A stretch of DNA of 64,000 nt, taken from Pseudomonadota bacterium (GTDB lineage: Bacteria > Pseudomonadota > Gammaproteobacteria > UBA12402). Below, in pieces: positions 33,447 through 40,054 of the stretch (the first letter of the stretch is position 1; the number at the start of each line of letters is the position of its first letter). The notes beneath the pieces were generated by a model. That model worked only from the letters and a program-made list of their open reading frames with translations. It ran no database searches and had not been told where the DNA came from. The stretch lies in the NCBI GenBank assembly GCA_039190005.1, contig JBCCYM010000001.1, positions 36,024 through 100,023 on the forward strand, given 5' to 3'. The translations under genes were made by a program, and so were the position numbers.

Positions 33447-36400
33447 CTAACTCTCTGATTGTTCTAATAATGCACCGGTTCCAAAACATGTCCAGATGAT
33501 TACTATTAATGATAATAAATAGTCAGAAGCCACCTCTGGATCTTCTGCGTCTGAAATAAAAGGTGTATAAGAAGTGAACTGCCCGGTGATCTTCGCCATG
33601 GTAAAAAGGAGATCAGATACAGATGGATTAGATTTATTACAGAATGAGATGATGTTTAGCACAATTTGTATCGATTCACGGCAAATATTCCATTGCTGTA
33701 AAAAACTCAATGTTGTCTCTAAATCATCCATTGTTGCAAAAATACGTATTGTTTTATTCATAACATCACTCCAATGAAGAAATAACGAATAATCATATAA
33801 TAGGCTATTTAGATTTAAATTTTCATATGTTTGAATAAATTCAACAGTAACACGAACCCATTTAATCATGATTCTTAAAACTGCCAAAATTTTGTAAGAT
33901 TTTCTAAATGCCCAAGTTGTATTTTCAATCGTGCGACACCCGTAAATGATCAATTCTATCATAATGTCATCATTGCATGCGCTACCCGATTGAGCCAGTG
34001 ATGACGTTTTTTTTGAAGATGACAATTGATCATTGGAATAATTTGGTAAAGTACATTGATTTGTACACTTGCCATTTTCAATTAAATAAGCAACACAGTA
34101 GAATGTCGCAGCCAAAAAACTCGCTAAATCTATAACTGGAGGACCTTTTGGTAATAAATCGACTTTTCCATTGGTGACCTTTTTGATAAATTCAAATGTT
34201 AACACAAGTGGTATAGGCAGTACTGCCAGCAAAGCTGGTAATTCTAACACATTGCTTATAAATGAAGACAATTCATCGGCGGCAATCGTGCCAAATTGAC
34301 GCACGGCATCAGCACTGTTACTTAATATAATGTCAACACTATTTTGCATACCCTGAAAAACACTAATTAATATATCAGGAAAGTTGGGAATATTAATAAT
34401 TGTATTAACAAGTGTATTGACAATATTTTCACTCTCTTGAGTAAGTGTATTCGTTATATCATCACTAATATTTGTCATCGCAGTGGTAACAGATGTTGGC
34501 ACATCAAAAGTAGCATTCAGTCCTTCAGCCACTAGCTTTTCGATCAACGATAAAATTTTATTAACTAGATGAAATAAAAAAGAAACCATATGAGATAAAA
34601 AACCATTACCATTAAATAAGTTAACACTCGCCGGTGGCGAAGTGGTTTTTTCAAGGTTGTTAATTAATGATTGTACACTGTTATCAAATTTGCTTTGAAT
34701 GCTTGTTATACCACTCGCAACTACATCTGCCTCGTTAACTAGACCGTTCTGTATGGCACTTGTAGTGAAATAACTCTTAAAGATAGGTTTCATCTGATTA
34801 GCAACCTCGGCAATATCAACAAAAAATTGCGCTAGTTCAATCAACAGTAAAACCTCAACAACAATTAAAATTTCAGGAAACACAATCAGTAAGACAGCCT
34901 TTAAACAAAAATCAATGGCATGTTCTAAGAATGGGCATGATTGCAATCCAGGTATTTCCAGACTATCACTTAACATAAAATGTAAGATTTCTGGTGCAAC
35001 ACTGTGTGATATCTTATGAATAAGATCACCCAGACGGTGAAACAAGCCACAGCCAGTGCTCCCTAAGAGTTGGTTGCTCATTTGTGTACTTTGATTACTA
35101 GAAAGCATGGTCGTAATCTGTTTTTGGCTGGGATCAAAGCTCCAGGTATAGTTTTCATACGGATTAAAACCATCAGGATATTTTGTTGTCGTTGGCTTAG
35201 CTGGTATGAGTGACGCGGCATAATTTAACGGATCAATACTATTACTGGTAGTTGCATTATTAACACCCTGGATATCAAACTGTGTTGGTTGTTCCTGAGT
35301 TTTAGTAGCTGCATTTCTAATGAATCGGCTCATCGCTGTATCACCAGCACTTGGATTACTAGTATCATTGGTATTAACATATTTGGAATTATAGTTAAAT
35401 CCCTGTTGATGAACAGCTGAGGTATTGGTGTAAGTAAATGTGCCACTTGAGTCCTGATAAGTTGAACGTTGTTGAGCACCCAATGATAAAGGAGAGACTG
35501 CCCATTGGGTTACTGCGCCATTATTTGTGGTGCTATCATCGTCTGCTGCACTACTGTTAAATTTCTGCAAAAATGCCTGTTCTGCTTTGTTGATTAAGAA
35601 TTGCTTTACATCGATGATTCTCAAAAACAAACTACAATGTAGTCGACCTCGGGCAGGCACTCTTAACACTAATTTACCGGAGTACTGATTTACTGGTAAT
35701 AACGCCGATGTGGTGCGATTAATTAAATGATACGAACGCGTGTGATCGCAAAGAATCTTCAATGCAGTGGCTGAGCGTATCTCAATTAATTGGGTGGAAC
35801 TCAGCTGTACCGGATTGCCATACACATTTGTCGGGGTAATCTCAGTATGGTAAAAACACTCATCCGCCACCACAACATTTGATACGTTAGTCTGCGATGA
35901 CCAAATCACTGTATTAGTTTTATCCCTGATGGCTAGACCACCATCATCGGATGCTTGGAGATAAAAAAGAGAGTTAGGAGAGGGCGTGAAACTACTATCA
36001 TCGTCGGATGGTGTCCAAATATCAGTACCATCATCGTCACGGAGTACTAAATTACCATCAGCTTGAAAATATAGCTTTCGTGCAAGCGCATCTGTTGATG
36101 AACTACATGTGGAAGTCTTACTATCCCATACATTAGTCCAATCACTACTGCCTACTTTTTTCTGCCATACTAGCTTGCCTAGATTACTAGTATCACTTTC
36201 CGATGTTATTATCAATAGTCGATAATAAGTATCATTCTCCCCTGGCACTATAATACTTTTACCATCACTTAATAGCAGTTGTTCTGTGCTATTATCCGGG
36301 CTTGAACCACTAAAACACCGCGCATTTTCAAAACCATCCATTTGGATGACAAACTGTTCTTCTTGCCAACTCGACTCCATCATTTTGTTATAACAAATAC

Positions 36401-39850: not shown

Positions 39851-40054
39851 TTATTGTTTGTCTTCCTTTTTTTCGTCTGTTTTTTCAGACATTGTGTCTG
39901 TGTTTGTATCGTCTTCTTTTTTATTTAAAGCTTGTTTGAAGCCACGGATAGAGTGACCAAGATCGGTGCCAATGCTGCGTACTTTTTTAGTGCCAAATAA
40001 TAGCAGTAGTATGACCATCACAATGATGAGTTGCCAAATGCTTATACCTTCCAA
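39851..40054 (-). CDS. tatA: Sec-independent translocase subunit TatA
   Basis: MEGISIWQLIIVMVILLLLFGTKKVRSIGTDLGHSIRGFKQAL matches the TatA consensus. 67 aa. Confidence 0.85.
   Translation of the reverse strand: MEGISIWQLIIVMVILLLLFGTKKVRSIGTDLGHSIRGFKQALNKKEDDTNTDTMSEKTDEKKEDKQ

Follow-up and report, generated by a model that had tools for sequence, protein, structure and literature searches.

The nearest known precedent for a substrate of the Tat (twin-arginine translocation) pathway encoded with its own dedicated translocase genes is phoD-tatAd-tatCd of Bacillus subtilis. Here we describe a 1785-aa giant open reading frame (ORF) that lies directly behind tatA, tatB, and tatC, all on the minus strand of a 64-kb stretch of DNA (hereafter the window) from a Pseudomonadota bacterium. 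Like phoD-tatAd-tatCd, this locus links a cargo gene to genes for Tat components, with which it is probably co-transcribed, and the linkage recurs across genomes, suggesting a substrate-matched translocase. Unlike it, the family of giant proteins is found with TatA and TatB (and with TatC in the window only) in Gram-negative bacteria; its cargo is 130–190 kDa rather than a ~60-kDa phosphodiesterase, and any dedication is here a prediction from the gene order. The giant protein may be an unusually large cargo with export-machine subunits of its own, and we put at roughly 0.5 the probability that the ORF encodes an exceptionally large Tat cargo whose expression is joined to that of the translocase genes immediately upstream.

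Other described systems resemble the giant protein in part. PlcH and PlcN of Pseudomonas aeruginosa are Tat-exported phospholipase virulence factors that are later secreted by the type II secretion system (T2SS); the giant protein would likewise be a Tat cargo that is not a redox protein and that may act outside the cell, but it has no sequence relationship to these enzymes, no T2SS link that was seen, and no sign of enzymatic activity. The Tat tail-anchored proteins known so far are redox subunits of small size, each with a single C-terminal helix. The giant family shares with them an N-terminal RR signal and a hydrophobic helix ending in the last 50 residues, with basic tails in several members, but its helical domain spans ~535 residues and holds several hydrophobic segments, cofactor motifs are absent, and its proteins are five to ten times as heavy. 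Lectin-like bacteriocins (LLBs) are ~28-kDa proteins in which two lectin domains follow each other immediately, with a C-terminal extension, and they are not known to carry a signal peptide. Among bacterial entries of NCBIfam and the PDB, residues 634–739 of the giant protein are matched best by the B_lectin (monocot mannose-binding, beta-prism II) domains of LlpA, putidacin L1, and pyocin L1 (PMC6240691). Unlike in LLBs, the lectins of the giant protein are set 85 residues from each other within a scaffold of 1785 aa; one preprint reports that an LLB C-terminal peptide inhibits BamA (bioRxiv 10.64898/2026.09.25.754295). The largest known Tat cargo according to a recent review is Escherichia coli FdnGH, a 142-kDa heterodimer in which FdnH is tail-anchored (PMC13186574). 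The giant protein is 196.9 kDa, or 187.4 kDa if cleaved after G83, and would exceed FdnGH; it resembles the latter as a very large twin-arginine-targeted passenger but differs in being a single ~187-kDa polypeptide after predicted cleavage, with multiple domains connected by a long disordered linker, no cofactor-binding signatures, and export that is predicted.

The genes of the locus and the ribosome-binding site of the giant ORF lie as follows:
39851..40054, minus strand: tatA, 67 aa with a TTG start (PF02416 E 6.9e-14; TIGR01411 65.8 bits versus a cutoff of 53.9)
39603..39797, minus strand: tatB, short form, 64 aa (best match TIGR01410, E 8.8e-13, 48.6 bits, under the cutoff of 56.5)
38823..39581, minus strand: tatC, 252 aa (PF00902 E 6.4e-59; TIGR00945 191.2 bits versus a cutoff of 132.7)
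38809..38815, minus strand: ribosome-binding site AAGGGGG, within the 18-nt spacer between tatC and the giant ORF and 4 bases ahead of its ATG
33447..38804, minus strand: giant ORF, 1785 aa, intact, directly behind tatC

The original prediction, that tatABC is followed after only 18 nt by an ORF with an AAGGGGG ribosome-binding site, is borne out for all four ORFs; the gaps between tatA, tatB, tatC, and the giant ORF are 53, 21, and 18 nt, and a consensus scan found no terminator-like hairpin between tatC and the giant ORF. The window TatA is 64% identical to the TatA of a related locus (L001, below), which begins with ATG at the same position. TatB had been called atypically short, and indeed the L001 counterpart is likewise short (74 aa, 53% identical); we accept the 64-aa protein as a short TatB, as indicated by its best match to TIGR01410, the gene order, and an N-terminal GE...LGP..LP pattern. 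A further remark, that the ORF takes the usual place of tatD, can be given no weight. The GC content at third codon positions (GC3) of the giant ORF is 0.296, against 0.416 +/- 0.047 for 37 neighboring genes, which suggests horizontal acquisition. Its product is identical to NCBI metagenome-assembled genome (MAG) protein AAGA27_00355 (Pseudomonadota bacterium), annotated 'hypothetical protein'.

A word-index protein search returned, among the matches listed, the giant protein itself, a 47%-identical paralog in the same MAG (P0002; locus tag AAGA27_08100, on a 6778-bp contig), and P0003, which comes from a Logan assembly and is 35% identical. A GTDB genome scan yielded only a Vibrio sinus homolog of 1553 aa with the common leader and mid domain, and two JGI metagenome scans with degenerate leader patterns yielded nothing. 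An exhaustive HMMER search with a profile of the mid and C-terminal regions recovered 25 cluster representatives (14 at E<=1e-10), most of them 1300–1770 aa, and the leader, N-domain, beta mid domain, and helical C-domain are collinear among family members. Their sources include Vibrio profundum, V. bivalvicida, and V. marisflavi (two paralogs), the Actinomycetota Microbacterium thalassium and Ornithinimicrobium MAGs, other MAGs, and the diatoms Pseudictyota dubia and Entomoneis paludosa (P0026 and P0025, respectively; MMETSP transcriptomes). All are named 'hypothetical protein' at source, bar one UniRef label 'Tat pathway signal protein'. Run on all family members, Pfam gave only scattered sub-threshold matches, PADLOC gave no match, and PHROGs matched the lectin only; the scaffold, lectins aside, matched nothing in Pfam, NCBIfam, PDB sequences, PADLOC, or PHROGs, and when 21 family members were combined into a profile, the sole matches among PDB sequences were designed helical bundles. 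As judged from these comparisons, the giant proteins form what appears to be a rare, previously unannotated family, newly recognized here.

The case for Tat targeting is carried by the leader of the giant protein, in which residues 1–54 form a basic n-region and the following features are found:
38646..38750, minus strand: amphipathic n-region, residues ~19–53 (...REKLSQRLKHVIEDDNIREKELKAFD...), conserved in the family in an alignment of 16 leaders
38622..38642, minus strand: twin-arginine motif SRRQFLK, residues 55–61, an exact match to the Tat consensus
38556..38621, minus strand: h-region and c-region, residues 62–83, weakly hydrophobic and ending in a conserved P-T-A-W-G

Across the six frames of the window there is a single instance of the strict pattern [ST]RR.F[LIVM]K, at residues 55–61, where shuffled sequences would lead one to expect 0.02 occurrences. 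Aligning the 16 leaders gives the consensus LR..L..rL...i....i..KEL.aFD...sRR.FL....k....a.LV..G..PtaWg, with RR retained in 15 of them (the sole exception is the paralog P0002), P.[ST].W[GA] conserved throughout, and the ~30-residue amphipathic segment ahead of RR conserved across phyla. The twin-arginine signal proposed in the original prediction is therefore genuine, with support also from three members that combine RR with a lipobox, and the unusually long n-region that it described is a conserved translated module, not a mis-called start. An extended conserved segment upstream of RR is unusual among Tat signals, and its conservation points to a partner, for instance TatB/TatC, some chaperone, or the membrane surface; a gene for a dedicated signal-peptide chaperone was looked for near family genes, and no such recurrent neighbor was found.

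The remainder of the leader is in keeping with Tat rather than Sec targeting. The Kyte-Doolittle maximum of the h-region over 15 residues is 1.39 in the giant protein and 1.2–1.8 across the family. A putative signal-peptidase site, AWG/Q, probably lies after residue 83 and fits the -3/-1 rule; the basic residues K74 and K87 are present nearby, and Arg or Lys stands right after the W[GA] site in six leaders (P0003, P0008, P0011, P0016, P0017, P0019). The traits described for Sec avoidance (PMC10924467) are an h-region of low hydrophobicity and basic residues close to the site of cleavage, and the weak h-region and these basic residues fit them. In P0010, its cluster-mate P0027, and P0018, RR is followed by a lipobox (LFATGC, LFAAGC, and LAGC), while P0014, P0025, and P0026 lack RR and have Sec-type or otherwise different N-termini, P0025 and P0026 being confirmed diatom sequences with Sec-type signal peptides. 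Given these RR-leader, lipobox, and Sec-type variants, the passenger would be extracytoplasmic in every lineage.

Genomic context was obtained for 11 family loci, and in four of these tatA-tatB stands immediately beside the family gene:
Window: tatA-tatB-tatC-gene
L001 (P0003): tatA-tatB, 290 nt, gene; tatC absent
L007 (V. profundum, P0009): tatA/E-like gene (70 aa), tatB-like gene (104 aa), 425 nt, gene; transposases upstream
L009 (P0023): gene-tatA-tatB; the remaining 129 nt hold no tatC start

The link between the giant gene and tat that was predicted from the window thus recurs, and does so in two subfamilies. The window protein and P0009 of the Vibrio subfamily share 18% identity in the family alignment, and because the two subfamilies are <20% identical, their tat associations are either independent or very ancient. 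At three of the four linked loci (L001, L007, L009) the tatA-tatB pair has no adjoining tatC, a departure from the usual gammaproteobacterial layout, tatABC; a tatC remnant was looked for in L001 and not found. In an all-against-all comparison of flanking ORFs, TatA and TatB were the only recurrent neighbors besides an alkylsulfatase (Lactamase_B plus Alkyl_sulf_dimr/C) found near the family gene at two unrelated loci, with copies 41% identical (L005 10404–12458 and L010 3484–5280). A genome has one or two tat loci, and by a rough estimate a gene would lie next to one of them by chance with a probability of ~1e-3 per independent event, so the recurrent tatA-tatB linkage likely reflects functional coupling, as far as gene order can indicate it.

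One of these loci also carries traces of rearrangement. Just upstream of the tatA-like gene of L007 (Vibrio profundum JAKJTA010000005.1, ~4784–4979) lies a decayed family leader (tblastn E 1e-5 versus P0015), in which RR has become YR and the frame is shifted; it reads ...IVDKETWRFEHIMSYRPF / FLGNAGKLTVVAAIVSSSMSPSNWVD, and DDE transposases lie farther upstream. This remnant suggests rearrangement or duplication of a cargo-tatAB module.

Downstream of the leader, the giant protein is built from a scaffold common to the family and from two lectin domains. Models of both protein halves were built with AlphaFold2 (AF2) from 4-sequence alignments, with confidence given as the predicted local distance difference test (pLDDT). 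From the N- to the C-terminus, the parts are:
36915..38555, minus strand: N-terminal beta-rich family domain, residues 84–630; motifs conserved family-wide, AF2 model of low confidence
36525..36914, minus strand: B_lectin (beta-prism II) domain 1, residues ~631–760; clade-specific insertion, PF01453 E 1.2e-5 alone
36270..36524, minus strand: family-conserved inter-lectin segment, residues 761–845 (...YALNRFSHDSEYIY...SSWQEEQ...), which aligns with lectin-free relatives
35865..36269, minus strand: B_lectin domain 2, residues ~846–980; PF01453 E 4.1e-5 alone, AF2 pLDDT 60–80
35595..35864, minus strand: small all-beta mid domain, residues 981–1070; best-conserved core of the family, seven strands in AF2 at pLDDT ~60
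35055..35594, minus strand: S/T/N/Q-rich linker, residues 1071–1250; 46% STNQ, mostly predicted coil
33450..35054, minus strand: C-terminal all-helical domain, residues 1251–1785; 535 residues with four hydrophobic segments, conserved family-wide including the diatom homologs
33465..33521, minus strand: last hydrophobic helix, residues 1762–1780, a candidate tail anchor ending 5 residues short of the C-terminus

The two bulb-type lectin domains described in the original prediction are present: PF01453 scores 34.1 bits on the whole giant protein against a gathering cutoff of 32.4, in 2 stretches, and also matches each domain alone; PDB plant bulb lectins (garlic, snowdrop) match residues 637–750 with E down to 2.8e-10; and Foldseek on the model of the N-half finds lectins at probability 1.00, including alignments to the two-domain lectins 1dlp and 3m7h (SCAfet and LlpA). 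What does not survive is their description as a paired, LlpA-like architecture. The domains are not adjacent, being separated by the 85-residue segment, which all of the family conserves, and the NF033557 model (putidacin L1 family, LLB) reaches only 60.1 bits against a cutoff of 275, with partial model coverage. Domain 2 is confined to the window protein and its paralog P0002, and is missing in P0003 and all other relatives; P0003 has a degenerate first lectin only, the second being an alignment gap. From these alignments, the lectins are two separate clade-specific insertions into a lectin-free family scaffold. The sugar motifs of domain 1 (ESDENLVLY, HSNGSLVVY, and QSSGNLIIW) are all degenerate, and the nearest to the canonical QxDxNxVxY in the giant protein are ESDENLVLY and QADGNLVLR, while the paralog P0002 holds one strict sugar-binding site, QNDGNLVVY. 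A literature search for Tat-targeted lectin-like bacteriocins found nothing relevant.

The scaffold itself matched no described family in these searches. The N-terminal domain (residues 84–630) has no known fold and no Pfam or PDB match, the mid domain (residues 981–1070) has no significant fold match, and profile and structure searches detected no known toxin, enzyme, or fold in the scaffold as a whole. Only lectin 2 and the small beta mid domain were given a fold by the AF2 models; Foldseek returned nothing under E 0.01 for the C-half and, for the N-half, lectins plus generic propeller noise only. A candidate resemblance to AsmA/TamB-like periplasm-spanning bridges was dropped, as profile support was absent. 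Two further features of the original prediction, a linker rich in S/T/N/Q and a hydrophobic helical C-terminal region of ~550 aa, were confirmed, the latter as 535 residues. By hydropathy, the hydrophobic segments of the C-terminal domain lie at 1304–1322, 1519–1537, 1557–1575, and 1762–1780. After the equivalent of the last of these, Arg/Lys-rich, Pro-rich tails are found in P0007, P0008, P0011, P0012, P0017, and P0024 (e.g. PPGKHRRRRRRPHEDDSKHRRGRF), and one relative with an Arg-rich tail is that of the Gram-positive Microbacterium thalassium; under the positive-inside rule, such tails in six relatives fit C-terminal anchoring. Among the diatom sequences, P0026 has an endoplasmic reticulum (ER)-type signal peptide, and a few residues of basic character (KDK) come behind its last hydrophobic segment, and in P0025 the mid-domain region is internally duplicated.

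Taken as a working model, the tatA-tatB-tatC-ORF block would be transcribed as a single unit, and the precursor would fold in the cytoplasm, at least domain by domain, after which its 83-residue leader (amphipathic n-region, SRRQFLK, and weak h-region) would dock on TatBC and the ~187-kDa passenger would pass the inner membrane via TatA assemblies. Following probable leader removal at AWG/Q, the C-terminal hydrophobic helices would hold the protein at the cytoplasmic membrane, the last of them acting as a Tat-type tail anchor, while the N-domain, the two lectin modules, and the mid domain would be displayed extracytoplasmically and the lectins would bind a glycan, either one from the envelope of the organism itself or one on a partner cell. 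Tat may plausibly be used because Sec would trap the hydrophobic helices of the folded C-domain as stop-transfer segments, and the recurring tatA-tatB neighbors suggest that the cargo may need extra or specialized TatA/TatB. For a model cargo, stepwise passage through Tat of multiple domains and long unfolded linkers has been shown (PMC13186574). On sequence grounds we favor an envelope protein that is exported by Tat and held by a tail anchor, rather than a toxin that is released, because the last helix lies near the C-terminus, relatives carry Arg-rich tails or occur as lipoprotein variants, and diatom homologs include an ER-type signal peptide and a basic stretch after the last hydrophobic segment.

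Several observations weigh against this interpretation. The C-terminal domain holds several hydrophobic segments rather than one, and we know of no multi-helix insertion by Tat; in the giant protein the tail past the last helix is acidic (LEQSES), not basic; and mean pLDDT is ~35 for both halves of the AF2 model, with hydropathy as the sole basis for the topology. Hidden Markov models (HMMs) of Tat signals score below cutoff on the giant protein (Pfam TAT_signal PF10518, 14.7 bits versus 22.7; TIGR01409, 12.3 bits versus 16.7), a failure that we attribute to the shortness of the models but that stands as a failure, and PF10518 reaches E<=1 in only 3 of 21 family members. The paralog P0002 keeps the entire leader but has YRQQFLK in place of SRRQFLK, so that either RR is not strictly needed or this copy takes another route or hitch-hikes; a copy in decay, a variant that does without RR, and a partner exported by hitch-hiking are all conceivable. 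No strict QxDxNxVxY sugar-binding motif is intact in the giant protein. At seven of the 11 loci (V. sinus, L003, L004, L005, L006, V. bivalvicida, M. thalassium) no tat genes lie within 3–10 kb, and in the window itself the tat genes include tatC, sit among core genes (hemF, topA), and may be a housekeeping set. Finally, published criteria for Tat tail-anchored proteins are a Tat signal, a transmembrane helix ending in the last 50 residues, and <=2 transmembrane helices (PMC10924467); by hydropathy, helix 1762–1780 of the giant protein fits in ending within the last 50 residues, but three further hydrophobic segments are found.

The original prediction suggested a dedicated Tat-exported toxin or adhesin, and a secreted membrane-active toxin or bacteriocin-like effector would likewise use Tat to reach the periplasm, then leave by another route, with the lectins targeting a competitor or host glycan and the C-domain inserting into the target membrane. 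The B_lectin domains of the giant protein have relatives in LlpA, putidacin, and pyocin L; the hydrophobic stretches of the C-domain, 30–40 residues long with conserved Glu, look buried and, together with a His-rich helix (SHALHDALHWLQH in relatives), recall inducible membrane-insertion domains; the low GC3 suggests horizontal acquisition; and some family loci lie in mobile regions with insertion sequence (IS) elements or integrases. We nevertheless consider such an effector unlikely, as no toxin (pore-forming and polymorphic toxins included), defense, or phage family is matched, the LLB family model is far under its cutoff (60 bits versus 275), genes for secretion or of an immunity-like kind do not recur in the neighborhood, the C-terminal domain is conserved and not polymorphic, and most family members lack the lectin. 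Moreover, lipoprotein variants, basic C-terminal tails, and the diatom ER-type signal peptide with its basic stretch all indicate membrane anchoring instead.

The low GC3 bears also on a second alternative, in which the giant protein is a genuine Tat substrate but its adjacency to tat has no functional meaning, the gene having been inserted horizontally behind a housekeeping tat operon and the order inherited in related lineages. GC3 (0.296 versus 0.416) marks the ORF as foreign beside core genes, seven of the 11 family loci lack tat neighbors, and the window and L001 come from related organisms (TatA 64% identical) and may represent one event. The linkage recurs, however, in the divergent Vibrio subfamily and in two orders (tatA-tatB-gene in L007 and gene-tatA-tatB in L009), L007 is transposase-flanked with a leader remnant ahead of tatA, tatAB stands without adjoining tatC at three of the four linked loci, and chance adjacency is roughly estimated at ~1e-3 per independent event. 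We regard meaningless adjacency as doubtful for the family; it is weakened by the Vibrio loci but may still hold for the window itself, with its tatC and core neighbors. Far less probable again is that the N-terminus is a Sec/signal recognition particle (SRP) signal or signal-anchor in which RR is incidental. The curated Tat-signal HMMs fall under cutoff, P0002 has RQ, and the Sec-type homologs (two of them confirmed diatom sequences) show that in eukaryotes a Sec-type route is open to the passenger, but against this stand the exact SRRxFLK conserved over Gammaproteobacteria and Actinomycetota, an h-region too weakly hydrophobic for an SRP anchor, basic residues after the predicted cleavage site in six leaders, and the recurrent tatAB linkage.

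The genes around the tat genes are core genes and include smg, topA, hemF, an erpA-like gene, gltP, an mrp antiporter, secA, yidC, and mnmE, so the locus belongs to the chromosomal backbone, and an Rfam search of the window found no RNA element. Two features lie directly upstream of tatA:
40464..40492, minus strand: best sigma-70-like promoter match of the region (TTGCCA-17-TATAAT, 11/12), upstream of a small ORF and tatA; a consensus match only
40220..40492, minus strand: the small ORF, a 90-aa coiled-coil protein with a C-terminal hydrophobic segment and a weak CCDC90-like/DUF1640 match (PF07798 E 1.2e-6, below cutoff)

The total count of sigma-70-like sites in the promoter scan equals the shuffle expectation, and it is uncertain whether the 90-aa ORF belongs to the tat transcription unit; the flanking-ORF comparison gave it no counterpart at other family loci. 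Elsewhere in the window, two adjacent plus-strand ORFs (50566–51960 and 52400–53821; 464 and 473 aa) have Sec-type signal peptides, no Pfam match, and the lowest GC3 of the window (0.232 versus 0.416 +/- 0.047). The 464-aa ORF contains two ~140-residue Cys-containing internal repeats and the 473-aa ORF a repeated Cys-spaced, beta-propeller-like pattern, and both are possibly secreted proteins acquired horizontally. An 804-aa plus-strand ORF (11723–14137) is a fused tandem Ddl comprising two complete D-Ala-D-Ala ligase units, with Dala_Dala_lig_N and Dala_Dala_lig_C each matching twice. At another family locus, in Microbacterium thalassium (L010/L011), the family gene sits in an apparent mobile or defense island, with an integrase and IS elements upstream and genes for an extracytoplasmic function (ECF) sigma factor, a nucleotidyltransferase, and DUF3375/JetB (Wadjet-like) downstream.

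In conclusion, the giant protein appears from its sequence to be a Tat cargo set apart by its size, extended leader, clade-specific lectin insertions, cross-kingdom family, and recurrent tatA-tatB linkage. More tentatively, it might be the founding example of giant (130–190 kDa) single-chain Tat cargoes, in which an extended leader helix is read by co-encoded, cargo-dedicated TatA/TatB paralogs, making up a substrate-specific Gram-negative Tat translocon that works past the known size limit, with the family spread horizontally among marine Gammaproteobacteria, Actinomycetota, and diatoms. If this holds true, natural 130–190-kDa single-chain cargoes would offer a test case for Tat size limits, stepwise multi-domain transport, and substrate-specific subunits, and the unusually conserved extended leader and repeated tatA-tatB linkage should be useful to the Tat field. 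Diatom homologs with ordinary signal peptides (P0025, P0026, and possibly P0014) imply transfer between marine bacteria and diatoms, and the presence of one family in actinobacteria, diatoms, and Vibrio from the sea suggests that kingdoms have exchanged a function of the envelope or surface, to which the gain of lectins in the window lineage suggests that glycan-directed adhesion or recognition may have been added.

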